DNA of 64,000 bases from a virus (lineage: Duplodnaviria > Caudoviricetes): IMG/VR virus record IMGVR_UViG_3300032038_000022, positions 54,860 through 118,859 of that record, one strand, 5' to 3'. Of the stretch, positions 39,130-61,814 are shown piece after piece. The stretch's first letter is position 1. Each line of letters starts with the position of its first letter. Made by a program: the position numbers and the translations under genes. The notes beneath the pieces were generated by a model. It had not been told where the DNA came from, did not search any database, and was given only the letters and a program-made list of their open reading frames with translations.

Positions 39130-42100
39130 TTATCCTAAACTTCTACCAGACATCGCTTTGGTAAAAGAGTCGTGTTCTCTTAAACTATTAATAACTGGCG
39201 GCGTTGGTCTATTACCTGCCCAAGTTTCATCAGCAACAGCAGCTACTCCTTTGGCAATAAGAGTTGAGATATCATTACCCTTCTTTAGCTCTTGAAGGAT
39301 AAGCTCATTATTTCCTCCTACTTTTCCTCCATCAGCATAGCCATTAGAATTCTTAGTTTTTATTCTTACGTTTTCAATAGAGTTAATTAATCTTGGATTA
39401 GCTTTAACAAGCTCAGCTGGAATTACGTATTCTCCTTTATGTACAATACCAGCAGGTTCATATTTACCACCTGGACCAGTATAACCACCGGAAGTAAAAC
39501 CCCCTATAACATTATCTCCTTCCGGTAATGTCCGTTGCCAAAATGGAATTTTACCATGATATTCAGTGTCCGGTTGCCTTTTCGTTACGTAATTTTTGTA
39601 TGCTGTCTTTCCCTCAGTCGTGGTAACTTTGCCTCTTTGATTCATTTTATATCCTTTTTGATTCATTTTTTTCGTAAGTATAGCTAACCGACGATTTCTA
39701 GCACCTTTATTTTTCCCATAACCACCATCAAAAATTTCTCTAATTTCATTTTTTGGCATACCAGTTACTTCAGAAGCTTCACGAATACTATTTTCTCTAA
39801 TTTCCCAGTTCTTAGATGAAATATAAGCTCCATCATGAGTATCCCAAGCATTCATAAAATTTTCAGCTCTTTTTCTATTAGCTTCCTCTGGAGTAATCTT
39901 TCCAAATTTTTCATCTAAATAGATTGCATTGCTTTTCTCGAAAAAGTTAAGTTTATCATACATTAGATCTTGTGTCCGGAGATAAGTTTCATTAAGATCT
40001 GACAATGCTATACCGAGGTGATTTAAAGCATCTTCACCATATTTTTCATATAATTTTCTAACTTCCTGTAGATATGTTTCACCAGCTTTTCCTATACTAG
40101 AGAATTCTTTAGCTAAGTCATTTCTATTTTGTTTTAGATATAGTTCATGCTTCGAATTAGCTTTTTTTATTCTTTCTACTTCTTCTTTACTTTTTCCGTC
40201 AATTTCTTGCATGTTTTTAGAAGCTATTTCTACGTCATCGCATACTTGTTTCCACATTTTATCATATAATTCTGCTAATTCCTGGGCAGATAACTTAGAA
40301 TTTTCTACAGTAATTTCAAAAAATTTATCAAAATTTTCTTTTTTATGTATAGCTTCAGCTAATTTAAGACGTGCAGCTGTTCTTTTTTTATTTTCTTCAT
40401 CAACCTTTCCAATAGTATAATTTGAATCACCTTCACGAGTACTTATCTCATTTGTCTGATAAACGTCACGCTTTCTCTCAAGTTCTCCTATTCTAAACTG
40501 GAGTTCTCGTTGAGTTGAAGAATCTTTTGAAACTTTTAACTCATCTTTTAAATTTTTTATCCCGTTAACAACTTCTTCATATTCGTCCCCATGAAGAACT
40601 CTAGCTTTAAAATCTTTATATTTTTCTTCTTCAGCATTAAAACTATTTCCTTTTCTATTTCCTTTTTGATACTCTTCAAAATAATTATCTCTAAATAATT
40701 TATCGGCACCCTCTGTATTTCCAGTAAGTAATAACTCATATAACTTGCCTATTGTATCTTTCTTAGTGCCAAAAGAATGCGATCCAAAATGACTTTTAGT
40801 TGCTAAACCATTTTTTGAAAATAAATTATCTGATATATTTAATAGTTTATCTTCTGCAGACGAGCTTATATTATATCCTCTTTCCCAAGCTTTAATATTG
40901 GAAATAAGATGTTGACGCTTATCTTTAGGCATTTCCTTCCAACCCTTTATAAAATCATCAAAAGATTGGGAAGAATTCTCTTTAAAATACTGAGAATGTT
41001 TTGTCCAAAGCTGGGCACCTTGATTTACAACCGCCATATCTTTATTTTCTTTTTCCACTTCTTTTGGAGATTTAACATCAAATGGTTTCCATGAACTTAC
41101 AGTCCAATTCGCTCCATCAGACGCATAAATATCTCCACCGGAAGAGTAATAGCCTCCACTACTTGAAATATAACCACTAGCATCGCTGTCAGGGAAATAA
41201 TCTTGTTGCAATGAATTTGTATAAGATCCAGCTCCTCCTTTAGCTACGGTATCAGCTATAAATTGAGCAATAATAGGATAATCCTTTCCTTGTGGATGAA
41301 ATCCTGGAACGGGAATCTTAAGCTTATCTTTAATCTGATAAAGATCTATAACTTCCCAACTGTTTCTTTTACACATCTCCACAATTCCAGCATTAAGTTG
41401 CTGTATTAAAGATTCTGGAAATCTATTATCTTGACATGGAAGACTTGTGATATAGTACACCTTTGCCGAGCCACAATTCTTTCCTATAGACTCAATATTA
41501 CTTAAAGCTTTTTGAAGGTTAATATCTGGACCTTCATTAAGGGCGTCACTAATTATAATTGTATTTGCTCCTTGACTAATAGCATATTTAACAAATTGAA
41601 TAATATGTTTTGCATTAGCACCACCCAAGAATGTTCCTTGTCTTGTTGGAGGGACCATTCCACTTTTGGATGCTTGTATACCTATTGGGGTAAATCCTTT
41701 AGCTTGTAATTTTTTCTCTAAATTACCATTAATCCAGTACCCTTGCATCCAAGAATCACCACAACAACCTATTTTTGCACCAGAAGAAACTGATCCTGCT
41801 GTAGCTGTAGGCATAGAAATATTTCCTAAACTAACTCCACCATTCGATGAAACTAATTCCTTATATACACCTGCACCAAATCTCATTCTCTTATTATAAT
41901 TCTGAGCACCTGTTACACCAGCATAAGATTTTCCTTGCCATACATACTGTAGGTTATCGTTATAGGCATCATAACCCATAAATTTTTCATAATGACGCCC
42001 CCAACCGATAGCAGCTAATCGAATACTATCTTGTTCTGATTTTCCTTGTGTTGCTTGTTTTATTATTCTTATAGCTTTATTAGAGTTATCACTTTGTCCA

Positions 42101-44676
42101 CTAACCAAGTACTGAGCTTGTGTCTCAAATTTATACCAAGGTAGCCCCTGCGAATCTGCCCATGCTTTGAGTCGTCCTAATTCGGTTCCTGGAGTAAATG
42201 GATTATTTTTGTTAGCACTACCTAAGAACCCAGCAATACCACCACCATATCCATGAACATCCCACGACAACTTGCCAGGATTTGCAACTAGAAGACCTTC
42301 ACCAATCAAATTTCCTATTACGCCACTAGCAGCGGCAGGAGATAGACCAGCCCGATTAACTAAAAGATCCATCATATATTTCTTTCTATAGGTCGCTTCT
42401 TCCTTAGACAAGCTACCTTTACTATGTATAGCACTTCCTATTATTCTACCTGCCTGATTAATACCACCTACAATAGTATTTACAGCATTATTAGCCATGC
42501 TCATAGTATTATTTTCAAGTGTATTCCATCTTTGACTGTAGGGATCTGTATTTTCTTCCATAGCAAATCCTTCTCTTTTTGCTTGAAATTCTCGTGTTTG
42601 GCGAAACTGCTCTTCTATATCAAAATCTTCATTACTTCCATCTCCTCTATATCGACTTCTAATAGCTTGTTCTCCACCACCATAGCTTATTAAGTGCTGT
42701 CTAATATTACGAACAAACTGTTCATTAGTAACATCTACTTTTTCTTGTCCTGTAAGTTTAGCACTTAGAACTCTTAGGGCAGTAGGATCAAGAGTATAAG
42801 CATTCCAAAAATACTTTTTTCCATTTACTTTTGCTGCAGGACGGGGATCCGTTGCATCAACTAGTTTAAGTTTATATTTATGAGAAAGCCCCTTATTAAT
42901 AGCAGAACCAACACCTGCTCCTGCAGCACCAACAATACCCAAGACATCACCAACAATACCTAAGTGGCTGAAGATTTCGTTCATAGTACTGATTCCATCG
43001 CCAAGACCTGCAGCTGTACCTGTAATCAAGTTACCCCCAGCACCGATGTATTCATTTAATTTTTCACCGGTCTTTTGTCCAGCATATGTTCTTAAGGATC
43101 CTTCCAAAAGACCCCAAGATTTTTCACGATCACGGTCTGTGCTATCCTTTTCTACCTGAATAAACTTCATTGGTCGAATTCGGATATGACCCTGACGTTC
43201 AAGACTGGCAGCATCAGAGCCAAACATTTTCTCTACAAACTCCTGATCGACAGTTACCTTTCCTCTTTTATCAGCAACATCTTGAAGTCTTTGTAAACCT
43301 GCTGACATTCTAGCAGTTTGTACTTTTCCGTTCTTAGTCTCATTAAGTGCTCCTATAATATCCATTGATTGTGATATCTCAGATGTGACTTTATCTGTAA
43401 GAGATGAACCATCAGAACTAATAGAGCCGTCCATCAGTCCATAATAACGTTGGCCATTCTTACCAGTATTGGCTAAGATTGCTTCACCCTGACTAGTATT
43501 ATCATCCATACCACTCTGAGTTGCAGCCATACCAATTCTAGTTATGAGACCGCTTTCTTTTTGCTGAGAGCTATTAGAGCTGTATATAGAAGCATTATTA
43601 ATATTTGCACGTAGGGCTGATTGAATACCTTTCTCTGGATCAACAATGGCAGTGAGAATATTTCCTAGGTAACCCGCAATACTGGAAATCATTGTAGTCA
43701 GATCACCACTAAAAGCTGGAAATTTGATAGCCTTTATTGCATCAGCTCTCAATTCCATTGCATGATCCAATTTCAACATTAAGTGATCAATAATTTCCTT
43801 ACCAATTTTTCTAAAAATAGCAAATAAATTATCTCTTCTAGGATCACCTCCAAAAAATCGTATTACATCTCCTCTAAATCCGCCTCCATTAGCCATGAGT
43901 CGACGACCCTCAGACGTTATTCCGAAATAATTCCCTGCGGCTGTGAGTTTATTCCCGATCCAAGCAAATACATTAAGAACTTTAGTCCAATGTTTTGCTA
44001 AGAATCGTACGGCAAATAACATTAAGAGAACCCTGAATTGATTACCAACACTTTGACCAATATTTTTAGGATTAAAACTAGCGGCCATCTCTTTGCTGGC
44101 AGACTCAATTCGTCTAAGCATCTTATTACTGCTTCTAACAAGAGCTGATTCTCTTTTATCAAATTCTTTTTCTCTTTTTGCAGATGCCTCTCTTTGTTGC
44201 AAGAATATTCCACTGAGCCATGTCTTAAACTTACTCGGATTATTATTACTACTATTGACCGATGGTTGTCTAAAAGAAATTTCTCTTCCAGCTAATGGTC
44301 CACCGGTGTTTGTTGTAGTATTATAATTATTAGTAATTGTTATATTTGGGGGAACAACTTTTACATCATGTCCCTCTTTTTTTATAACTCTAGGAGCAGT
44401 ATTCATTCCATACTTAGCAAGCGTTGCCTGCGTTCCAGGACCTGCAGCTTCAGTTACCATCTGTCCGGCTTGAGCAAGAACGGCATTTGTCTGAGCATCC
44501 GCATTATTTTGAGTCCTTTGTATAGCCAAGTTATTTCGTTGTTCATTCTGTATGGCTTGAAGTTGATTCTGTGCCATTTGCTGCTCAGATAACCCTTGGC
44601 CGGACTCTATCTTTCTGTTACTGAGCTCTTTTGTTCTTTTATCAATATTTCCACTATAGGAATCATTCTGTGCCAT
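39130..44676 (-). CDS. Tape measure protein with tail lysozyme and SGNH hydrolase domains
   Basis: 1848 aa after the chaperone. [18 protein letters not shown] (phage tail lysozyme), IGCCGDSW...GFHPQ (SGNH), and C-terminal [22 protein letters not shown] (TMP motif). Confidence 0.8.
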   Translation of the reverse strand: [1848 protein letters not shown]

Positions 44677-44688
44677 ATATGTTTATAT

Positions 44689-44931
44689 TTAAAAATCAAA
44701 AATATCAAATGGTTCGTTATCACCATTTTCACCTAAGACTTGTACTTTATTCTTTCCTTTGATTGTTGTACCCTTACTTCCAAAATCTATCATTGGGAAA
44801 TCTGGATCAACACCCTCAGTTTTCTCTAAGAATTCATCATAAGTTTTCTTAAGTGCAAATAGTGACTCTAATGTATAATCTTCAATTCTGTCTACTTTTA
44901 AAAATTTATTTAAATAGAATTTTAGATCCAT
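44689..44931 (-). CDS. Tail assembly chaperone, downstream (T-like) ORF; probably a frameshift extension
   Basis: Overlaps the end of 44906..45667 in the +1 frame and directly precedes the TMP; in-frame ATG at 44931. Confidence 0.55.
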   Translation of the reverse strand: MDLKFYLNKFLKVDRIEDYTLESLFALKKTYDEFLEKTEGVDPDFPMIDFGSKGTTIKGKNKVQVLGENGDNEPFDIFDF

Positions 44932-45667
44932 CAATTGGGCTATTGATATAGAGGTCTCGAAAGAAATCGACAATGAGACTATCAACGCTCACTGCCACAC
45001 TCCTCCTTTCTTCTGGTTTTAAGCCCTTATTGCACTCGGGACAATATAACTCAATTGGTTCAAGCCTATCATAATATAAGTCACGAAGAGCCATAAGAAG
45101 AGTTACATCACTGTATGTTGCCCCTAATACATCTTGCTCTACCTGATTACTTCTAGAATCAAAATCTTTAATAAGAGCAATCGTTTTAATCATCTTTAAA
45201 TCTTCAATTTTTCTATATCGTAGGTAAATATTAAAAACCTTCATAAACTCATTAACAGTAGGAATAATAGTATCATACGTATGACCACCTAATTCTATCC
45301 TAGCACCATTCATAATCTTTTCATCAATCTGCTTGAAATGAATATCTTTTTCAAAGCTAATAGATTTCTGAATCTCATGACCACAATGAGGGCATCTAAT
45401 ACTAATCTGATAAGAAAGATCCTGCGATATTGTACACAGTTTCTTAAAGAATATCAAAAAGTCTACATCCATTATGTAACAATTCTTAATATTCTCATCA
45501 TCCTTTTGAAGCATTCGTATATCATATAAATACTTTCCTAGGACATCATCTTTAGGCATATCCTCTAAGTATCTAGTAATTTCTAGAAAAGTTAAAGGAT
45601 TAATTCTGATACTACCAAATGAGTATCCATAACCTCCACTTGGGAGTTGCGATGTTAATATTTCCAT
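44906..45667 (-). CDS. Tail/baseplate hub assembly chaperone (T4 gp26/gp51-like, two CxxC)
   Basis: QLPSGG..Y, DVDFLIF, CPHCG, CPEC and ..DFF near the C-terminus; upstream of the TMP. Confidence 0.65.
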   Translation of the reverse strand: MEILTSQLPSGGYGYSFGSIRINPLTFLEITRYLEDMPKDDVLGKYLYDIRMLQKDDENIKNCYIMDVDFLIFFKKLCTISQDLSYQISIRCPHCGHEIQKSISFEKDIHFKQIDEKIMNGARIELGGHTYDTIIPTVNEFMKVFNIYLRYRKIEDLKMIKTIALIKDFDSRSNQVEQDVLGATYSDVTLLMALRDLYYDRLEPIELYCPECNKGLKPEERRSVAVSVDSLIVDFFRDLYINSPIDGSKILFK

Positions 45668-45805: not shown

Positions 45806-46918
45806 TTATCTATTAACACTGTTATAAGTATTCTCACTAATAACTACTAAATCTTGTTTACCAATAAAATCTTCTAATGTATATGATCCAGTATACGACA
45901 TTGCACTCCTTAAGTAATCTTTGAAATTATTTGTCCAGGAGGACATTGTATATTCTACAGGAATCATCCTAGTAAGACCTTCTGATGTTTTTGTCTTTTT
46001 ACCACTTATAGCTATCTGGCCCTTTGCCGATGCCATACCATAAAACTCTTTTCTTAACTTAATTTCATCCCACATTCCAGTACTTGTATCTAAGTCATAA
46101 AACTTACCTGACTCATACTTATGATTAGAGGGATCAAATTTAAATTCTCGCCACTTGTCAGAATCAGGATAACAAAAATATGTCTTACCCGAGGACTCTA
46201 ACATCTTAGCAAATACAGAGCCAATCATAACATAATCAGCACCAAGAGCAAGAGCTTTAATAATGTCTGCATAACCTCTAATACCACCATCTGCAATAAT
46301 CTTACACTTACCATGTATTTCACTTTTTATTGCATATGTTTCTTCAATAAGAGATGCCATTGGATAGTGAACCGACGTGTTACTTGACGTAATACACCCT
46401 GCACCAGAACCAATTCCACATCTAACATAATCTACTCCAGAATCCTCACATACCCTATAAGTTTCTGGATTAGCAATATTACCAACCATTATTTGAATCT
46501 TATAGCCATGCTTATCTTTCGCCCTTTTAACTGCATTATATAAATCACTCATATGACCATTAGCAATATCAATTAGTGCACGAAAAATTCCAGGCTTGGT
46601 TTCCAATCCAAGATGGCCTCCACAAAAAGTATCCTTGAATTCTTGAAGACTAAATGCAGCCCATGAACCACTAGTTGAATGCTCTAAGCGAGATTGATAA
46701 TCAATGTTTCTAGGAAGAATAGGAATAATTCCCTGTTCCATAAATGATTCATAATTCTCCAAACTTACTACACTACTCATAGGAGCAGTAAAAAGAGGGA
46801 GAATAAACTCATGATCGACAAAAGGATCACACTCACTACGATGACTAACATCAGATACCTTTGACGGAACCAAAGAGATGTCATTGTAGCTATACTTAAT
46901 ATTATCTTTCTTTATCAT
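45806..46918 (-). CDS. IMPDH/GMP reductase family enzyme (GMPR-like, no CBS domains)
   Basis: YSYNDISLVP, PLFTAPM, DIANGH, GIGSGAGCIT (catalytic Cys), IIADGGI, FYGMAS, TSEG, LRSAMSY; start reset to ATG 46918. Confidence 0.9.
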   Translation of the reverse strand: MIKKDNIKYSYNDISLVPSKVSDVSHRSECDPFVDHEFILPLFTAPMSSVVSLENYESFMEQGIIPILPRNIDYQSRLEHSTSGSWAAFSLQEFKDTFCGGHLGLETKPGIFRALIDIANGHMSDLYNAVKRAKDKHGYKIQIMVGNIANPETYRVCEDSGVDYVRCGIGSGAGCITSSNTSVHYPMASLIEETYAIKSEIHGKCKIIADGGIRGYADIIKALALGADYVMIGSVFAKMLESSGKTYFCYPDSDKWREFKFDPSNHKYESGKFYDLDTSTGMWDEIKLRKEFYGMASAKGQIAISGKKTKTSEGLTRMIPVEYTMSSWTNNFKDYLRSAMSYTGSYTLEDFIGKQDLVVISENTYNSVNR

Positions 46919-46979
46919 ATCATAAGTAAGGATAGGAAGGGGAAATAATAGCAAATTATACAGTTTCAATGAGCTAAAA

Positions 46980-47265
46980 AGCGCCCAAGGGTCCACGATA
47001 GTGGCATTTCATTTAAAATCCCGGCCTGCCCGGATTCCATCCGCCACTCGCTTGCTACATTCGTCACTTCATTCCTCATTCCACTTAACGCTCCCACCCC
47101 GGCTCTATGTAAAGAAGCATTCCAAAGCTACTCATCGGTACTCGGGACAGATGCAGTCCCTCGTTTAACCCTCTTCGTTTAACGCTTTGGCAGCTACGCT
47201 ATTGAATAAGACTCCTGAGGAGTAAGCGGAACGACTGAAAGGAGTGAAGCGATAACGACGAAGAA
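46980..47265. other. GC-rich, highly self-complementary non-coding region (ncRNA or single-strand origin-like)
   Basis: Nested inverted repeats: 47000-47005/47043-47048, 47060-47093/47218-47262, 47122-47128/47184-47190, 47144-47148/47156-47160; palindrome 47211-47223. Confidence 0.55.
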
Positions 47266-47269
47266 AACT

Positions 47270-47415
47270 AAATGCACTTTTTTTTCTGTTTTTTTATGGG
47301 ATTACTATATTACATAAATAGTTAGTAAAAATAGTGCATTTTAAGTGGAACTTTTTTTCGGACTTTTTACGGGATTACTAATATACATGAATAGTCAGTA
47401 AAAATGTTCCACTTA
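47270..47415. repeat. Two tandem 72-74-bp units, each a 54-bp AT-rich core between inverted arms
   Basis: Cores 47279-47332 and 47352-47405 are 45/54 identical; arms are AAATGCACT/AGTGCATTT and TAAGTGGAAC/GTTCCACTTA. Confidence 0.85.
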
Positions 47416-47436
47416 GATTTTATTAGATTATCTATC

Positions 47437-47473
47437 CACCCTTACGGGTGACCCTAGGACATTTCTTAGGGTC
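47437..47473. other. Two adjacent hairpins at the helicase stop
   Basis: CACCC-TTAC-GGGTG and TGACCCTAGGA-CATT-TCTTAGGGTCA. Confidence 0.55.
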
Positions 47474-49526
47474 ATTTCTTCTTCACTATCTCAAAACCAT
47501 GAGTATTCTTTCCATTTTCTCTCCATTGAGTTGATTTTATTTCAAACCAATTTTCAAGATCAGTAGCCTTAGGTGGTTTTGTATATCCACATCTTTTATA
47601 GAGTTCTCCTAGGTCATTTTTAATTCTAGCACTACTATACTTCTCTCCAATTTGGAAATACCCTTGAACTAGTTCCTTAAGATCATTAATTGTAAACTTT
47701 CCCTCTTTAAGCATATTTTGTTTTACAGCAGTGACGTCATACCAGCATTCTTTTAATTTTTCAAGGCCAAGTTCAAGATAATATCGAGCAATAGCAGAAC
47801 CATTAAGTTGATTATCTATTAAAGTTTGTCTTTGCTTATCACTTAGTGGTGCTTCACAAAAGAACTTTAGTTTATCTCTTAAAGTTAGAAGATTATTATA
47901 TTTTTCTAAAAAGTCATTAATATCCTCAGTTTCACTTTTTAGATCAAACACTTCTCCGATTTGATTAAATACTGTAAATCTGTCTGCATAGTCGATTTGT
48001 TGTATATCGAATGCTCTTGAGTCTGCAATTTTAACAAGAGAATTAACTTTAGGAATATAATTAATAATATTTCCGTTTTGATCATATATTCTATCAACTG
48101 CTATATAATTATCCTTATAATTTAAAAGTTTAGAAATATGTTCATAATTTTTTGCTAATTCCTCTTTTGTATCCTCTGGTGCAAAATTATAAGCTCTTAA
48201 TAGTTTTTCAGAGGCATCCTCTCTTTCTTGAATCTTTTTACCAAGTTCTTTAGCATTTTCTTTAGTATCTTTATTAGGGAGAGTATAATAGAATTCAGCT
48301 TCATTTTTCCATGGGTTCTCTATTAATCTTTGTCGTCCTAGTATTTGTGGTAAGTCTAAGGAAATATCAATACTAAGACAACTTACATTAGCGTCGCTGA
48401 GAATATAAGATTTAGCACAGGTACTATAAAAATCAGCTCCTAAATATACCGTTCTAGTACACATTGTGAATTTCTTTTGTTTTTGTCCACTAGCAAGATC
48501 ACTTTTAGTTAATACTCTGCCAATAGTATAGGAGGATCCAAGTTTAGCTTTTATCTTATCTCTATTTTCTTTAGTATCCGCACAGAGAATATTTACGTCA
48601 TCTGGTTTTATTTTGTTATTTCTTATCAAACTTATTATATTTTTTACCGAGTTGACGTATATTACTGCTTCCTTTGATTGTATTTCAGTTACTATACCTG
48701 TCGTTTTATCTACAGAGAGTTTACTTGGGTAATTTCCTTCGAGATACTTTTTTATTATTGGTTTTATTGCCTCCCCTATACTTCTTACTTTTCGTATTAG
48801 TAGGCTTGGTTTCCCTGTTCTTCCGGGATCATCTTTTTCCCAATCTAACCAAAAAGCTGGTAGAGATGCAAACTCTGGCATCATTTGAAGGTATTTAGAC
48901 ATCATTGGAGTAGCACTAACGTATACTACCGTAGGAATTCCCTGTAGAGCTTTAACAAAAGAATTTTCTGTAGAGGACTTGAATACTGCATCTGTAAAAA
49001 TGCTCTGAAATTCATCTACAACTATATAGAACTGTTGCAAAATATTAGCTTTTATAAGAATATCCTTGATCAGGTAGAATGAATCATAAGTAACTAGAAT
49101 TTTAGCAGGTTTTCCATTTGCTTGACATGAATTCCAATACCAAGATATATCATTCTGTAATTTTATATATTCTTCAGCTCTTCTTTTATTAAACTCTTCT
49201 TCAGAGAATGTTTCTGGTTCTCTAATACTTTTAAATTTTCCTGGACTATCATTTGTATCCTTATCAACAGTTAGAGCTTCATCTAAGTTATTCTTTGCAT
49301 AATAAACTTCTCCTGGATGTTGATCTGTTTTATTTTGTAATAATATTCGTCTTGGAGAACATAAAATTATATTCATCTTGTTCTTAATACAAAATTCAGT
49401 ATATCCACAGCCAGGAATTTGTTTGTCTAGTATGTGTGGGAAAGGAAACATATAATTTTCTTCATATCCTTCCCAATCACTAATATATCTAATTCCTTTT
49501 GGTACAATTATAGGTGTTCCATTCAT
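47472..49526 (-). CDS. Superfamily 2 helicase-like protein, origin-binding-protein (UL9-like) type, with putative C-terminal DNA-binding domain
   Basis: PGCGYT (atypical Walker A), VVDEFQ, VSATP, IYVNSV, TVYLGADF and QILGRQR motifs. The UL9-like label is an inference. Confidence 0.7.
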   Translation of the reverse strand: MNGTPIIVPKGIRYISDWEGYEENYMFPFPHILDKQIPGCGYTEFCIKNKMNIILCSPRRILLQNKTDQHPGEVYYAKNNLDEALTVDKDTNDSPGKFKSIREPETFSEEEFNKRRAEEYIKLQNDISWYWNSCQANGKPAKILVTYDSFYLIKDILIKANILQQFYIVVDEFQSIFTDAVFKSSTENSFVKALQGIPTVVYVSATPMMSKYLQMMPEFASLPAFWLDWEKDDPGRTGKPSLLIRKVRSIGEAIKPIIKKYLEGNYPSKLSVDKTTGIVTEIQSKEAVIYVNSVKNIISLIRNNKIKPDDVNILCADTKENRDKIKAKLGSSYTIGRVLTKSDLASGQKQKKFTMCTRTVYLGADFYSTCAKSYILSDANVSCLSIDISLDLPQILGRQRLIENPWKNEAEFYYTLPNKDTKENAKELGKKIQEREDASEKLLRAYNFAPEDTKEELAKNYEHISKLLNYKDNYIAVDRIYDQNGNIINYIPKVNSLVKIADSRAFDIQQIDYADRFTVFNQIGEVFDLKSETEDINDFLEKYNNLLTLRDKLKFFCEAPLSDKQRQTLIDNQLNGSAIARYYLELGLEKLKECWYDVTAVKQNMLKEGKFTINDLKELVQGYFQIGEKYSSARIKNDLGELYKRCGYTKPPKATDLENWFEIKSTQWRENGKNTHGFEIVKKK

Positions 49527-49552: not shown

Positions 49553-49605
49553 TTCCCATAGTTCTATTGAAAGATATTAAGCATATTTCACTTAAGCTAT
49601 GGGAA
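49553..49605 (-). promoter_or_regulatory. Stem-loop/operator in the helicase leader
   Basis: TTCCCATAG (49553-49561) and CTATGGGAA (49597-49605), with an inner TGAAA/TTTCA pair. Confidence 0.45.
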
Positions 49606-53696: not shown

Positions 53697-54290
53697 TTAA
53701 ATATTATTATGTTCTCTGTTATAGTGCTCAAATGTGAGGGTCAGAGATATATCTGCACGATCACTTTCACTATCGAGATCACCGTTTTCATTCAGCGGAG
53801 CGTCTTGGAATTGACAGTTATAGAAAGTAAGTGTCTTTACATCAATACGCTGAGCATTAGTAATAATCAGCTGAAGGTCGGCTACGAGGTCATCCTTACG
53901 GAAGCTGTAACGGGTCTCAGGATCAGCAATCTTATTACGCCAGTCAGTTACAAAATACGTAATAGAAGCATCCTCACGATCAACGAAGTTAAGGGTAATA
54001 GTTCCACTTGTACTTTGATTAGTACGTTGTTCAATACGCCATCCACCACGCATTTGTTTTGTAATACCGGTTGCTGAATAATCAATACCTACCTGAACAC
54101 TATTAAGACGAGCATTAATGATATCATCACCAGGATAGTAAACAATCTTAGGTGCATTGATAACCTTTAACTCATACATATCACCACGAAGGAATTCTTT
54201 GTTATTATCCTTGTAAGTGTTCTGATAGTCAATAAATTGCATACGGCCACTATATTCACTTGACCGTACCAGGCTTGCTACTGTTGCCAT
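53697..54290 (-). CDS. Tail tube protein (T4 gp19-like)
   Basis: 197 aa after the sheath-like gene; GTITLNFVDRED, TLTFYNCQF and ISLTLTFEH are tube-fold patterns; followed by a terminator. Confidence 0.7.
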   Translation of the reverse strand: MATVASLVRSSEYSGRMQFIDYQNTYKDNNKEFLRGDMYELKVINAPKIVYYPGDDIINARLNSVQVGIDYSATGITKQMRGGWRIEQRTNQSTSGTITLNFVDREDASITYFVTDWRNKIADPETRYSFRKDDLVADLQLIITNAQRIDVKTLTFYNCQFQDAPLNENGDLDSESDRADISLTLTFEHYNREHNNI

Positions 54291-56600: not shown

Positions 56601-59600
56601 TTATAATCCGACGACTTTTAATACAGGTGATAATGCAGTTGAAACTACACTAGTTGCCAATTTTACTTTGTCCTTCTTTTTATCTTTTTTTAGCTGAGCT
56701 TTTCTTTTTTTATTCGCTGCAGAGTATGAACTGGTAGTATTAAGTTCTGTAGTGGGGTTCTCACCTACAATACTAAAGACTAGGTTTAAATCACTACCGC
56801 CGGAATCAATATCACCAGTTCTCTCTTCTACAAAATCTCTAAGTACAACTAGAAGATCATATTTAGAAATAGTACTGAGTTGTGGAGTAAGACTATAAAT
56901 TATACATCTGAAAGTTACATTTTTGTATAATGCAGGACAAACATAAGATTTATCAATTGCCGTAATACCTGCTGGATCTGGATACTTCGTTTGAGGAATA
57001 TCACTAAATAATACTAATGAAGAACCTATGCCAAACCCTATTGATTCTTTACTATAGTAGTCTATCTTATGAGGTTCACTGCTATATATAGCTGCATCGG
57101 AACATCTTTCAAAGTAAGTTCTCCAAGATTTATAAGCATCATCAGCAATGGTTAGTCTTAGTTCGTTTGTAAATTCCATGGAAATAGGGTATACAATTTC
57201 ACCATCAAACAAGTTAAGACTTTTAGTAGACATTTTACTCTTACTTAAGTCAAAACCTGTAAAAGGTATCCATTTATTATATCCAGTATTAACTCCATGA
57301 TGTGCTGCATTCCATATATTAATTTCAGCTAATGATGGAAGATATGAATACCCACCATTTTCCTTACCACAAAAAGGTTCTAGAATAATTTCCCAGTGGG
57401 TGTTATCGTCTAGAGTTATTAAATTTCCTCCAGGATTTTGTTTAGATGCAGTAAATTTAGTAGGTTCATTCATATAAGGACTACTTTTAATAGCAGTGCG
57501 TAGATCTTCAACTGATTGTATATCATTTGGCTTAACCCCTGCTAAATCCTGAAGAGTAGTAGTTATGCCCCATCCTTGCATATAATTCGATTTAAAATCG
57601 TATTCTTTTTTTGGATGCGCACCAAGTAATGCTTCACCCGCAGCGGCAGCTAATGCATTTCCCAGTTTTTTAAGTGAAAAACTATTACTTTTATTTTTGT
57701 CCTTACTATTTTTATCACCTCTTGAAGTGTTTGTTCTATTATTACCATATTCCCAACCCTTTTCATCTTTCCATTTTTCTGGTCTATTCATAGGAAGGGA
57801 TGTGTCTATTTGTTGTGCACCAAAAGTAGAAGCTACATTATTAATTACTGATTTGGTTAATTTACTTGCAGCTTTTTTAGCTAATTCTTTAGTTCCTCCA
57901 CCAGCAATTACATCTTGTAAGATTCCGACATCTTTTCCTGGGAGTCTATCTCTATTCGATTTTGTAGAAATCTCAAGAACTCTTCGTGCTGCAACAAGTG
58001 TCATTAAGGTTGTATCAAGTAGTATTTGTCTTACGCTACTTTTTCCATAGGGGTTAGGACCAAATACCCAAGTCCCAGATGAACTCTTTACTAATCCAGC
58101 TGCTTGTTCGGCTACATATCTCAGATATTTACTAGCATTAATACCATTAGTCCAGCTTACACAAAGTTTATACTCTGCCATTTGAACATTTCCTTGATCA
58201 CCCAGAATAGTTTTAAAAAGTTGTTGTTCAAATTCATCTGCGCGTGCCTTTGTAACCTCACCTCCACTTAAGTAGGCACTCATTAAAGACTTAACTTTAC
58301 TTGCCCAACCTTTATCAAGTGCTTTATTATCTGCAAAGCGTAATATATTATTGTAGTATTGCTCTAAGCTTTTATTTCTAGAGTTTAATATTGTTTTTAA
58401 GTTTTCAGCAGTATTTTTTTCATCTTCTTCTGCCTGAATAGCCAAGTCGTATAGTGAGTCCGAATCTGGATCAAATTGTCTATGTTCATCTCCTTCTTCC
58501 TCTACGTCTTCTCTAGACTTACTAAGAGAATCTTGAAATCCAGTATGTTTATAATCATCTCTTGTCGGATCATCTTCTTCATCTCTTTTGTGATTAGGTC
58601 CATAGTTTATTTTATCTACATCATTATCCTTAGCTTTTTCAGCAGATCTATATAATGTATCTGTTTCTGGATTAAACTGTTTGTGATCTATGGACTCATC
58701 ATCTTTACTAGCATTTTCAAGATTATCTGATAATTCTTTATTCCAGGCTAGGTTTTCATTATCTGATCCTTGTTCAGTATTATCACTAAAATTAAATTTA
58801 TCAGTCTCGTTTATTCCCAAGTTAGTATCATAAAGGGACCCATTTTCCAGTGTTTCAAACTGTGCATGATCAGCCTTTCCTTCACCATTCAGCTTAGTAG
58901 TATCATCTTTAGCAGTTTTTATATTCTCTTCATAGAGTTTATCCTTTTCAGGGTCAAACTGTGCATGGGTTCCATCAGAGGATAAATTTGTTTTAGACGT
59001 ATCATCAGATTCTACATCTTCTCTAGACTTACTAAGGGAATCTTGAAATCCAGTATGTTTATAATCATCACGGGTTTCATCATCCTCTTCATCTCTTTTA
59101 TAATTAGAGCCATAATTTATTTTATCTAGGTCGTCAGGTGTAATATTTTTTCTAATATCACTAAGAGAGTCTTGGTCTTCTGTAGTTAAGTCTAATCTTT
59201 CTTTACTTAAACCTTCATTCTTAAAATCAATATTAGTATCTACCTGCCCTTCAAAGTTGTAAATATCTGTTTCAGTAACTGCCAAAGCAATATCATAAAG
59301 AGAATCAGTGTCTGGATTGAACTGTGCATGATCAGCCTTTCCTTCACCATTCAGCTTAGTAGTGCTATCGGGTAAGATAGGTTTTAATTCATCTTCGAGA
59401 TCTACATCCTCTGTATTTAAATCTAACCTTTCTTTACTAAGTCCTTCTCCCCTAAAGTCAATATTAGTATCTTCTTCACCTTCAAAATTAAACTTATCTG
59501 TTACCTCTAGGTCTATAAGTTTATTACTGAGTGAGTCAATATCGTTTGGAGAAATATCAAGTAAGATATCGCTTAGATCAACGTCCTCTGTAGTTAAATC

Positions 59601-61814
59601 TAGTCGAGTATTACTAAGATTATCTACTTCTTTCTCTTCAAGGTCAAGTCTAGTATTACTTAACTTATCAGGTTCAATATTTTCATTATTTACTACTTGT
59701 TCTTTATTATCTTCAAGTCTCTCAATTTCTGAAATATCTTCAACTGATACTAATTTTTTACTAAGTTCCTCTAGTTCAGTAGTACTTTCAGTTATATTTT
59801 CTAGATTTTGGCTTAAATCCTCTATTTCCTTATCACCATCTAGAACTTTAATTGAATTGTCACTAAGTTTATCTACTTCTTTCTCTTCAAGATCAAGTCT
59901 AGTATTACTTAACTTATCAGGTTCAATATTTTCATTATTTACTACCCGTTCTTTATTATCTTTAAGTGCGGATATCTTGTCCCCTGATTCTATAATTTTC
60001 TTAGCTGGTTGATCTGGAAGATTAATATCAACTTGTGGAGTAAGCGTTTCTAAATGATCATTATCTAAAGAATCAATTAACTTTGGATCAATTTTTTCAT
60101 GGGTTGTGCTAAGTTCTGGTGTATCGAGGATTTTTCCTTTGTCTTGAATTTGTTCTAGACTTGAATCAAGATTTTTTATTTCTTTAGTATCAATTCGATC
60201 AACTCTAGACTCTAATTCAGAAACTTCTTTATCCTCTAATTCCTTCTTAATATTAATAGCTTCGCCTGAAAGTTTTATTTTATCATCCTCTGGATCTGGA
60301 TAATCGATAACTTCTTCTTGCTTTGTATTAAGTTCTTGAACTTTATCACTGACTTCAATATTTTCTTTTTCTTGATTAAGTTTTTTCAGCTCAAGTATAT
60401 CTCCATTGATCTTTTCTTTTTTATCTTCTAAAAAGATATTCTTTTTACCTATATCCAAAAGTTCAGGTTCTGAATTTAACTTTTTTATTTCCTTAGCCTG
60501 CCCTATAATATTCTCTTTAGAAGTATTTAATTCATCTTTTCGTATTTTTCCCTGGACAGATTCTATATCTTTCTCCAGTTTTATTTCATCTTCCTCTTTA
60601 GGTTTATTGATAAGTTTCTTAGCTGGCTCTCCAATGATTTCAACCTTCTTAACATCATTAATGTCTTCTCGTTCCTTACTGAGTTTGACGCCTTTCTCAT
60701 CTTTAACCTTGATATCACTTCGAAAGGAAGACAATTCTGTTTTTTCTTTTATACCCAAGTTTTCACGATCCTTACTTAGTTTTTCTAGTTCTATTATATC
60801 TATATTTTCCCTAGTATCACTAAGAGGTTGATCTTTAATCTTACCTGGGATTGTAATATTCTTAGTCTTTTTTAATGTTTCAACTTCTCCGTTTTCATTA
60901 ATTGCTGAAGAAACTGGTTTGTTTTCACCTAAGGACTTAAGCTTTGGTAACTCACCTTCAATATTATTTTTAGGTTTCTTTAAAGATTCGATTTCTTTCT
61001 TCTCACCGCTTAACCAAATCAGTGATCCATTATCACTAGCACCTTTAATTATATTTCCTTCTTGCTGTTTTAATTCATTTTCAGAGAAATTTTTTCCTAT
61101 ATCTAGTAGTTTATTTTGCAAAGCATCAACAGTTTTCTCAACTTTTAATCTTTCTCTTAGATTATAATCAAGTTTCTGTTTTTCATCTATTTCTAGATCA
61201 ACAATAGTATCTTTTCCTCTTTTTAATGATAGATTTTTATCTATTTCTTTTGCAAAATAAACATTTTCTCTTTCCTTTTTTAGGTTGGGATCTTTAATTT
61301 CCCCTATATCTAAACGATCGTTACTGAGACTTGGATCTTTTTGATTATCTATAATTGAGTCTATGTAACCAGATAATGAAGTTTTATCATTTATTTTTAG
61401 ATCTTCTCTCTTAGTTCCTAATGAAGTATTCTTTTCACCTGGTGCAATATTTTCAATATCATCATCAAGAGTAGTTTCCTTTTTATTACCAAGGATAGTT
61501 TCTCTTTGTTTTTCCAGAGTCCCTACATTTTTATTTGTAGTTAATGTTTCTCTACTGTCCTTTAGTTTAGATATAATTCCAGAATTACCTCGGGTATCCA
61601 AGACTTCAACTTTATCACTTAAGGAGGTTATTTCCTTCAACGAACCAGATCTCCATCCTGGAACCCCTAGGTTATCCTTTCCAAGATTGATGCTATCATC
61701 AAGAGCTTGTCTTTTCTTTTTTAAATATTTACTTAAGGCAGATATTTCTTCCGGACTTGTAAATTGATCACAACCTGTTTGTACTTTATTTTCTTTTCTA
61801 ATCTCTGTATCCAT
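56601..61814 (-). CDS. 1737-aa protein: long charged repeat region plus C-terminal globular, possibly tube-fold, domain
   Basis: About 1130 aa of L-S-x-x-R/K-x-D/N-L/I repeats; C-terminal ELRLTIADD..WRTYF..LNLVFSIVGE. Confidence 0.6.
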   Translation of the reverse strand: MDTEIRKENKVQTGCDQFTSPEEISALSKYLKKKRQALDDSINLGKDNLGVPGWRSGSLKEITSLSDKVEVLDTRGNSGIISKLKDSRETLTTNKNVGTLEKQRETILGNKKETTLDDDIENIAPGEKNTSLGTKREDLKINDKTSLSGYIDSIIDNQKDPSLSNDRLDIGEIKDPNLKKERENVYFAKEIDKNLSLKRGKDTIVDLEIDEKQKLDYNLRERLKVEKTVDALQNKLLDIGKNFSENELKQQEGNIIKGASDNGSLIWLSGEKKEIESLKKPKNNIEGELPKLKSLGENKPVSSAINENGEVETLKKTKNITIPGKIKDQPLSDTRENIDIIELEKLSKDRENLGIKEKTELSSFRSDIKVKDEKGVKLSKEREDINDVKKVEIIGEPAKKLINKPKEEDEIKLEKDIESVQGKIRKDELNTSKENIIGQAKEIKKLNSEPELLDIGKKNIFLEDKKEKINGDILELKKLNQEKENIEVSDKVQELNTKQEEVIDYPDPEDDKIKLSGEAINIKKELEDKEVSELESRVDRIDTKEIKNLDSSLEQIQDKGKILDTPELSTTHEKIDPKLIDSLDNDHLETLTPQVDINLPDQPAKKIIESGDKISALKDNKERVVNNENIEPDKLSNTRLDLEEKEVDKLSDNSIKVLDGDKEIEDLSQNLENITESTTELEELSKKLVSVEDISEIERLEDNKEQVVNNENIEPDKLSNTRLDLEEKEVDNLSNTRLDLTTEDVDLSDILLDISPNDIDSLSNKLIDLEVTDKFNFEGEEDTNIDFRGEGLSKERLDLNTEDVDLEDELKPILPDSTTKLNGEGKADHAQFNPDTDSLYDIALAVTETDIYNFEGQVDTNIDFKNEGLSKERLDLTTEDQDSLSDIRKNITPDDLDKINYGSNYKRDEEDDETRDDYKHTGFQDSLSKSREDVESDDTSKTNLSSDGTHAQFDPEKDKLYEENIKTAKDDTTKLNGEGKADHAQFETLENGSLYDTNLGINETDKFNFSDNTEQGSDNENLAWNKELSDNLENASKDDESIDHKQFNPETDTLYRSAEKAKDNDVDKINYGPNHKRDEEDDPTRDDYKHTGFQDSLSKSREDVEEEGDEHRQFDPDSDSLYDLAIQAEEDEKNTAENLKTILNSRNKSLEQYYNNILRFADNKALDKGWASKVKSLMSAYLSGGEVTKARADEFEQQLFKTILGDQGNVQMAEYKLCVSWTNGINASKYLRYVAEQAAGLVKSSSGTWVFGPNPYGKSSVRQILLDTTLMTLVAARRVLEISTKSNRDRLPGKDVGILQDVIAGGGTKELAKKAASKLTKSVINNVASTFGAQQIDTSLPMNRPEKWKDEKGWEYGNNRTNTSRGDKNSKDKNKSNSFSLKKLGNALAAAAGEALLGAHPKKEYDFKSNYMQGWGITTTLQDLAGVKPNDIQSVEDLRTAIKSSPYMNEPTKFTASKQNPGGNLITLDDNTHWEIILEPFCGKENGGYSYLPSLAEINIWNAAHHGVNTGYNKWIPFTGFDLSKSKMSTKSLNLFDGEIVYPISMEFTNELRLTIADDAYKSWRTYFERCSDAAIYSSEPHKIDYYSKESIGFGIGSSLVLFSDIPQTKYPDPAGITAIDKSYVCPALYKNVTFRCIIYSLTPQLSTISKYDLLVVLRDFVEERTGDIDSGGSDLNLVFSIVGENPTTELNTTSSYSAANKKRKAQLKKDKKKDKVKLATSVVSTALSPVLKVVGL
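58501..59128. repeat. In-frame direct repeat of ~118 bp (58501-58618 / 59011-59128)
   Basis: Both copies encode DKINYG.N.KRDEEDD.TRDDYKHTGFQDSLSKSREDVE; offset 510. Confidence 0.85.
58858..59363. repeat. Exact 44-bp in-frame direct repeat (58858-58901 / 59320-59363)
   Basis: TTKLNGEGKADHAQF occurs twice; offset 462. Confidence 0.85.
59613..59962. repeat. In-frame direct repeat of ~100 bp (59613-59713 / 59862-59962)
   Basis: DNKE.VVNNENIEPDKLSNTRLDLEEKEVD.LS occurs twice; offset 249. Confidence 0.85.

Follow-up and report, generated by a model that had tools for sequence, protein, structure and literature searches.

Why would a phage keep a helicase gene and a block of non-coding repeats in the middle of its tail gene cluster? 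We considered this question for a locus in a 64,000-nt window of viral DNA, bases 54860-118859 of the 118,859-bp IMG/VR viral record IMGVR_UViG_3300032038_000022. The record was judged 32% complete, which puts the phage genome at ~370 kb, with a GC content of ~30%. The gene in question (47472..49526, minus strand) encodes P0001, a 684-aa superfamily 2 (SF2) helicase-like protein and paralogue 1 of three in the 119-kb fragment. An earlier sequence-only reading had proposed that it is an initiator acting on boxes resembling those of the herpesvirus origin oriS. We find that the protein and an inverted repeat beside its gene vary together across paralogues and orthologs, with the tip of a C-terminal beta-hairpin, or wing, changing along with the arms of the repeat. 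This covariation is a new result of the present analysis, and it supports a cognate pairing of the helicase with an inverted-repeat site whose arms flank an AT-rich spacer.

The four boxes of the sequence-only reading are present where it had placed them (47079, 47223, 47342 and 47406). The word TAAGYGGAA occurs eight times in the window against 1.5 +/- 1.2 expected, a count reached by none of 100 shuffles, and four of these eight matches fall inside the 337 nt of 47079-47415. The boxes had been taken for copies of one site, a description that does not hold: two are the arms of a hairpin, and two lie on opposite strands of a separate long-range pairing. The pair around the AT-rich spacer, TAAGTGGAAC (47342-51) and GTTCCACTTA (47406-15), does form a perfect 10-bp inverted repeat with a 54-nt spacer, as had been described. 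This hairpin (unit 2, 47342..47415) lies ~57 nt beyond the stop codon of P0001 and is likely the cognate site of that protein's wing. It is the second of two tandem 73-nt units (47269-47341 and 47342-47414) that are 77% alike, each a perfect inverted repeat around a 54-nt AT-rich spacer. Unit 1 (47270..47341) has a loop 83% identical to that of unit 2, and its arms, AAATGCACT (47270-78) and AGTGCATTT (47333-41), are unrelated to those of unit 2; no cognate protein for it was identified within the 119-kb fragment. Both units are kept, with other arms, in the ortholog L086 (related loci are given here as L followed by a number).

On the protein side, the partner of the arms is the C-terminal domain. 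The AlphaFold2 (AF2) model of residues 415-684, with a predicted local distance difference test (pLDDT) score of 81, ends in a helix-strand-helix-helix-strand-strand order with a beta-hairpin wing. The winged-helix-like domain covers about residues 614-683 (47478..47687, minus strand), and the wing hairpin, FEIKSTQWRENGKNTHGFEIVKK, residues 661-683 (47478-47546, minus strand). VIA matches it best to the DNA-binding domain of RFX (1dp7; Z 6.3, root-mean-square deviation 2.7, 66 of 76 residues), which at Z below 8 is a weak match and a lead only; Nse1, NrS-1 and RFX5 follow. The C-terminal DNA-binding domain predicted in the sequence-only reading is thus probably a winged helix for nucleic-acid binding, given the fit of the modelled topology and the weak RFX match.

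From one paralogue to another, and even among close orthologs, the loops stay alike but the arms vary, and the changes in the arms track the wing tip. One of the clearest cases is that of paralogue 2 and its ortholog L112, whose N-terminal parts are 97.5% identical. The arms read TGTACCA in one and TGGAATA in the other, a third arm copy, in direct orientation 170 nt upstream, carries the same change, and 9 of the 25 amino acid substitutions fall inside 14 wing residues (SVLLSENGK vs EIQWRENGK). Similarly, L045 and L051, which share wing and arms (AACAGAAC), are 93-95% identical to L066 (arm ATGTA..) in the N-terminal 575 residues and 67% identical in the last 100, and the cassettes, the non-coding regions that hold the hairpins, are ~97% identical except in the arms.

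The converse is also seen, with like arms and like wings on distant backbones. Paralogue 1 of the window (arms AAGTGGAAC, wing STQWRENGK) and the non-orthologous L112 (GTGGAATA, EIQWRENGK) have GTGGAA and QWRENGK in common at ~47% backbone identity. Arms and wing are shared by L026 and L066 (ATGTATAC) at ~65% backbone identity and by L043 and L016 (TGACTA) at 64%; in the ATGCATA and TACAAC groups the same arms accompany the same wings on unrelated backbones, including a paralogue from G001, a 367-kb relative that is 93% complete. In L107 (GAGAACCT), arm and wing both resemble those of the AACAGAAC group. In a partial Mantel test with N-terminal identity held constant, wing identity correlated with arm similarity at r 0.49, which none of 5000 permutations reached, although the permutations leave some shared ancestry in place and the arms of the four loci with a downstream cassette were assigned by eye.

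The locus L013 provides a further case, in which a second gene carries a copy of the helicase tail. The next gene after the helicase (L013:5026-6045, 339 aa) begins with a T5orf172/MUG113 (GIY-YIG-like) domain and ends in 166 residues that share 67% identity with the helicase tail and carry a wing of the ATGCATA type. For the L013 helicase itself, wing and arms alike are of the TACAAC type, so the arms correspond to its present wing. A similar tail-only match follows one paralogue in G001 (131043-131456). The exception to the pattern is L019, which combines ATGCATA arms with a different wing. On this 43.8-kb contig, the helicase is 96% identical to that of L011 N-terminally and 47% over the tail, and the downstream DNA differs; L019 may join parts of different paralogues, through recombination or as a chimera of the metagenome assembly.

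The simplest reading of these patterns is that the wing tip reads the arm sequence, so that helicase and inverted repeat would form a cognate pair, and we consider specific binding of the arms by the wing to be probable. The sequence-only reading had suggested asking whether the boxes vary with the C-terminal domain across paralogues: for the hairpin arms they do. The two boxes of the long-range pairing show no covariation with the arms in the ortholog.

The module recurs within this phage and well beyond it. The fragment holds three helicase copies with a mutual identity of 44-48%, and the paralogues that had been suggested as a check on the locus exist and carry a cassette of the same kind. 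More than 4,500 relatives make up the helicase family, and those listed with long records lie on gut or rumen contigs of ~200-400 kb, often several on each. In at least 34 of the 80 related loci searched with nhmmer, the helicase gene is directly preceded by an ORF-free cassette (ORF, open reading frame) of ~550 nt, and all cassette matches in G001 adjoin a helicase gene. That genome has seven full helicase copies, six of them beside a structured cassette, and the seven are evenly spaced (coefficient of variation of the gaps 0.18 vs 0.83 for random placement, P ~1e-4), a figure that comes from this one genome. Phages with helicases that are 55-79% identical have their modules at syntenic positions, and some modules form small islands on the opposite strand.

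In the related cassettes, the hairpin has arms of 7-13 bp and an AT-rich loop of 40-55 nt followed by TTTTGC, and of 60 distinct upstream regions, 31 have inverted repeats with at least 11 matched arm positions, compared to 4 of 60 after shuffling. A genome-wide scan of G001 for generic inverted repeats returned many unrelated matches and was uninformative. GGAATG-like repeats are present in all cassettes and are common to the upstream regions of paralogues 2 and 3 and related loci. As in most paralogues, the cassette of paralogues 2 and 3 in our fragment is upstream of the gene. For paralogue 1 and the orthologs L086, L107 and L108 of that gene it is found just downstream, in a convergent arrangement, and only 33-239 nt of spacer remain upstream of the gene. 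The function of the cassette is therefore independent of being the gene's promoter region. As a separate observation, in L007 and other related loci the whole ~480-bp cassette is enclosed by a 16-bp inverted repeat, GAAGACTARGGAWACC, that is highly conserved and, in contrast to the hairpin arms, changes little from one paralogue group to the next; no equivalent was seen in the window.

Beside the hairpin units lies a GC-rich conserved non-coding element (47021..47216, 51% GC), which holds the box at 47079-47087. The box at 47223-32, TAAGCGGAAC, belongs to a purine-rich strand (47212..47268) that pairs with a pyrimidine-rich stretch at 47055-47105, and these two boxes, in and beside the element, are found on the two strands of this long-range pairing. 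A second copy of the element, 96% identical, lies at C1:15630-15824, directly upstream of helicase paralogue 3, where the purine-strand sequence is different and pairing with the same pyrimidine stretch is retained. The duplex has an energy of -31 to -38 kcal/mol in both genome copies against -20 +/- 3.5 for shuffles. We also considered an alternative pairing of the 47079 box with the unit-2 arm and rejected it, as the identity is not kept in the ortholog (TTTCACTTA vs arms GTGGAC). The element appears to be non-coding because its copies differ by a 1-nt indel and a loop is changed between kept stem halves (GGGAC...GTCCC). It is 95.7% identical in the ortholog phage, compared to 80.7% for the helicase gene and 71.9% for the hairpin units.

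Folded as a single sequence, neither strand of 46990-47270 outperformed shuffles (z -1.2 and -0.1). Searches of Rfam 15 (E up to 1) with the window region and eight related or paralogous loci returned no family at threshold and only chance hits; at the locus itself the only hit was a chance miRNA-like hairpin (E 0.21), and elsewhere there was one tRNA near paralogue 2. Upstream of that paralogue, just beyond the tRNA gene, are two tandem ~1.1-kb copies, 89% identical (C1:47922-50534). The core of the GC-rich element was not found by an exact-pattern scan of IMG/VR, nor the element by BLAST and nhmmer against the 80 related loci and G001, and on these empty searches it appears to be specific to its own lineage.

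The helicase core has an unusual motif I. The assignment to SF2 in the sequence-only reading is borne out by the AF2 model (pLDDT 81.6), which has two RecA-like domains in tandem and aligns over ~300-340 residues to Prp2, DbpA, eIF4A, DinG and BLM (VIA, Z 15-18; Foldseek E ~1e-9). Searches of P0001 against Pfam and PHROGs, to which the family is invisible, found no match, and a profile search of PDB sequences with the helicase family gave chance hits only. Weak DEAD (PF00270) matches appeared in 10 of 34 relatives, with a best E of 0.0013. Motifs II (DEFQ), III (SATP) and VI (QILGRQR) are invariant in 34 sequences, as are G39, C40, G41, T43 and E44 in the motif I region, plus K35 upstream. Motif I reads PGCG(F/Y)TE in 113 of 121 proteins, with an aromatic residue at the P-loop lysine position. 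Longer, fused homologues were searched for and none was found. Group I or II introns or inteins were considered for helicase genes with a ~3-kb match span and rejected, the extra kilobase being a separate downstream gene with a shared tail.

What such a module does is less certain than that it exists. To our knowledge, how replication begins in phage genomes of 200-700 kb is largely unknown. We tentatively propose, by analogy and from the even spacing, that the helicase-plus-cassette module is a replication origin with its own initiator-like helicase, a reading to which we give somewhat less than an even chance. The layout at unit 2 is that of an origin in its perfect 10-bp arms, 54-nt AT-rich spacer and distance of 57 nt from the gene, with binding suggested by the covariation. 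An origin is favoured because specific inverted sites around an AT-rich spacer adjoin the gene, each paralogue has a specificity of its own, the modules are evenly spaced around the genome and the cassette persists where a promoter role is impossible. The locus is one of several such helicase-plus-site modules of a ~370-kb rumen jumbo phage. The tip of the beta-hairpin wing would read the inverted arms that flank a ~50-nt AT-rich spacer, and the protein might bind the two arms, or the hairpin that they form once melted, open the AT-rich spacer, and then load or act as the unwinding motor, with the neighbouring structured, conserved element perhaps serving priming or assembly. About seven such modules would sit evenly around the genome, each with a private wing/arm specificity.

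A more elaborate version holds that ~7 evenly spaced origins are each licensed by their own lysine-less SF2 paralogue through a wing-tip/arm code, and that this code is rewired when mobile nuclease genes swap tails, the arms then following the wing; as a whole this is speculative, and we regard it as rather unlikely. If the modules are origins, a bacterial virus would possess a multi-origin, multi-initiator system comparable to what is seen in herpesviruses and on archaeal chromosomes; otherwise, a widespread gut phage group would still have a seven-fold, evenly spaced feature in need of an explanation. A family of more than 4,500 members comes with a site predictable from sequence, and the wing/arm pairs are a natural table of matched protein and nucleic-acid specificities that could yield orthogonal DNA- or RNA-binding parts.

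Several observations weigh against an origin, in addition to the L019 exception, the limits of the Mantel test and the reliance of the spacing on a single genome. A motif I of the GxGK[ST] form, with its Walker lysine, occurs in no relative examined; ATPase and unwinding activity are therefore uncertain, which calls for caution with any model that requires ATP hydrolysis. The best matches to the core fold are DEAD/DEAH RNA helicases, and the related cassettes have at least 12-16 pairs with compensatory changes, which are typical of a folded single strand, possibly RNA. The hairpin occupies an operator-like position, 125-175 nt upstream of the start codon, in most paralogues. Finally, GC skew, which had been suggested as an origin marker, tracks the coding strand exactly and cannot serve as one.

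The module can be compared with several known systems. In archaea, the ATPase Orc1/Cdc6 uses a C-terminal winged helix to bind inverted boxes on either side of an AT-rich unwinding element; its gene adjoins the origin, and the several origins each have a paralogue of their own. Layout, adjacency and a paralogue per site are thus alike, whereas Orc1/Cdc6 belongs to the AAA+ family and our protein is an SF2 helicase of a phage for which an origin role is a prediction. The O protein and ori iterons of lambdoid phages, and the Rep-iteron systems of plasmids, have an initiator whose DNA-binding part varies with the repeats and a site in or next to the initiator gene. As here, co-varying pairs of protein and site give private replicon specificities, but none of those initiators is a helicase, the sites consist of direct repeats, and each replicon has a single module.

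The PeSLs (promoter early stem-loops) of T4-type phages are short inverted repeats that bracket an AT-rich, promoter-like intergenic segment and are linked to modular shuffling. The hairpins described here differ in that they occur only beside one gene family and vary with its protein. They also differ in that no sigma-70-type promoter was called in the loops by a consensus scan of 47269-47415, although this consensus may not suit the promoters of the host or phage.

The origin-binding protein (OBP) of herpes simplex virus 1 (HSV-1) has, like P0001, an SF2 core followed by a C-terminal sequence-specific DNA-binding domain, and at oriS inverted boxes flank an AT-rich spacer. Once melted, the complementary boxes can form a hairpin to which the protein binds (PMC12543377). 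The herpesvirus genome also has several origins. The likeness is one of analogy only; the helicase described here belongs neither to the OBP family nor to that of Orc1/Cdc6. The tail here is small and winged-helix-like compared to the 316-residue domain of OBP, motif I lacks its lysine, the spacer is ~50 nt long rather than 18, and each of the ~7 sites adjoins the gene of its own paralogue and has its own specificity.

As an alternative to an origin, the cassette could be a long regulatory region containing an autoregulatory operator, with the winged-helix tail binding arms that bracket the promoter of the helicase gene and repressing or activating it. Winged-helix proteins are typical operator binders, the hairpin of most paralogues lies on the sense strand upstream of the ATG with the conserved TTTTGC after it, and private specificities would prevent cross-talk among seven paralogues. 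However, the window and its orthologs keep the cassette downstream and convergent and conserve its GC-rich part, the spacer left upstream there is short, and the sigma-70 scan called no promoter in the hairpin loops. The operator would also leave unexplained the even genome-wide spacing and a structured part of ~400 nt with covarying helices. With the RNA tether described next it is a serious rival to an origin, although we consider it unlikely, at somewhat more than one chance in five.

Alternatively, and with a slightly lower probability of about one in five, the helicase may be tethered to RNA in the manner of DbpA. The cassette would be transcribed as a leader or as free RNA, the C-terminal domain would bind the arm hairpin, and the SF2 core would remodel the adjacent RNA. 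In DbpA/YxiN, a C-terminal domain likewise reads one hairpin (hairpin 92 of 23S rRNA) and tethers an SF2 core to structured nucleic acid, although the DbpA tail is RRM-like and its target is an invariant rRNA hairpin, whereas the stems here are hypervariable and the target may be DNA or RNA. Consistent with a tether, hairpin-bound DbpA (7pmq, Z 17.8) is among the best fold matches, the related ~550-nt cassette folds far better than shuffles (z -6.3) with the compensatory pairs mentioned above, the long-range pairing is kept in two element copies with different partner strands, and the third, direct arm copy at paralogue 2 could give an alternative pairing.

Two small GC hairpins at 47437..47484 on the plus strand (CACCC-TTAC-GGGTG and TGACCCTAGGA-CATT-TCTTAGGGTCA) overlap the helicase stop codon and are followed by a T-rich run on that strand only. 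They are nearly invariant in the ortholog and, from sequence, could be a terminator for plus-strand transcripts, not called by a simple terminator scan, that would end such a transcript at 47484.

On the other hand, the consensus folds of the two strands of the cassette are similar in energy (-67 vs -75 kcal/mol), wobble pairs favour different strands in different helices, and the clearly covarying helices are strictly Watson-Crick on both. With both strands folding about equally well, the working form may be RNA of either strand or single-stranded DNA. No Rfam family matches, seven different RNA-helicase pairs at even spacing would be left unexplained, and rumen RNA runs give only low-depth contigs over the GC-rich element (depth 2-3, vs 4-10 on the neighbouring IMPDH-like gene). 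A 180-nt contig from these runs on 47051-47231 probably reflects assembly breaks at the two-copy repeat and is neutral on RNA.

Another possibility, which we think improbable at around one in ten, is a selfish or mobile cassette, in which the helicase, the site and, in relatives, the tail-carrying T5orf172/GIY-YIG-like nuclease are a homing or recombination unit and the arms its site of recognition or recombination. The nuclease gene of L013, with its tail copy bearing a different wing, agrees with this, as do the exchange of C-terminal modules among backbones and the opposite-strand islands; the GC-rich element was apparently copied recently, since its 96% identical copy lies beside a helicase that is only 44% identical. 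Such a tail-bearing nuclease would account for the swapping of tails but not for the agreement between the helicase's present wing and arms that lie 2 kb upstream. Moreover, module positions are syntenic across divergent phages, the paralogues are old (~45% identity) and all intact, no nuclease-with-tail gene was found in this fragment, and the 196-nt copy has neither target-site duplications nor terminal repeats at its ends. Mobility of the nuclease would in any case be compatible with a housekeeping role of the helicase and its site.

The OBP entries 9HGI and 9HGJ are absent from the 50 best structural matches listed for either model, although such a list may miss a similarity. True homology to UL9/oriS, as had been suggested, or a chance cluster of functionless short words is nevertheless very improbable: for the former only the overall layout is alike and the box TTCCACTTA loosely resembles part of the UL9 box, a likeness that the sequence-only reading had itself called possibly coincidental and that proves so, while the window lacks CGTTCGCACTT and its 8-9-nt cores, 121 proteins lack RVKNL, and the helicase matches neither Herpes_ori_bp nor any PDB sequence even with a profile; for the latter, chance is excluded by the clustering statistics, the conservation in orthologs and the covariation.

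The surroundings of the locus are those of a tail gene cluster, as had been described. The helicase module lies between a tail-tube-like ORF (53697-54290) and the gene for a 1848-aa tape-measure protein with a lysozyme domain (39130-44676), and the helicase, the non-coding cassette and an IMPDH/GMP-reductase-like gene are all within the cluster. Around the helicase locus, every long ORF is encoded on the minus strand. ARAGORN detected no tRNA or tmRNA in the window region, and no GenBank phage matched by BLAST. The sister contigs, the samples holding orthologs and the RNA runs covering the region all come from the ruminant gut.

The IMPDH/GMP-reductase/FMN-dehydrogenase-like gene (45806-46996, minus strand; PF00478, E 5e-38) is syntenic in related phages and has the best coverage of the region in the rumen RNA-run contigs. 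Its called GTG start at 46996 overlaps a conserved non-coding motif, CCCTTGGGC, and the true start is probably an ATG ~27 codons further in (MIKKD...). Between this gene and the tape-measure gene, a 253-aa protein (44906-45667, minus strand) has several weak zinc-ribbon matches. On the other side of the helicase, a perfect 9-bp inverted repeat, TTCCCATAG/CTATGGGAA, with a 35-nt loop (49553-49605) ends 27 nt upstream of the start codon; it is unlike the cassette hairpins, being without T/A runs and without TTTTGC. In the locus L112, a reverse transcriptase (RVT_1; L112:1-815) lies two genes upstream of the helicase, beyond a 178-aa ORF. Farther along the window, a 1737-aa ORF (56601-61814) encodes a very large, structural-looking protein with a repetitive segment, in which several direct repeats of ~75-120 nt, with 78-95% identity, lie ~230-510 nt apart (58501-59967).

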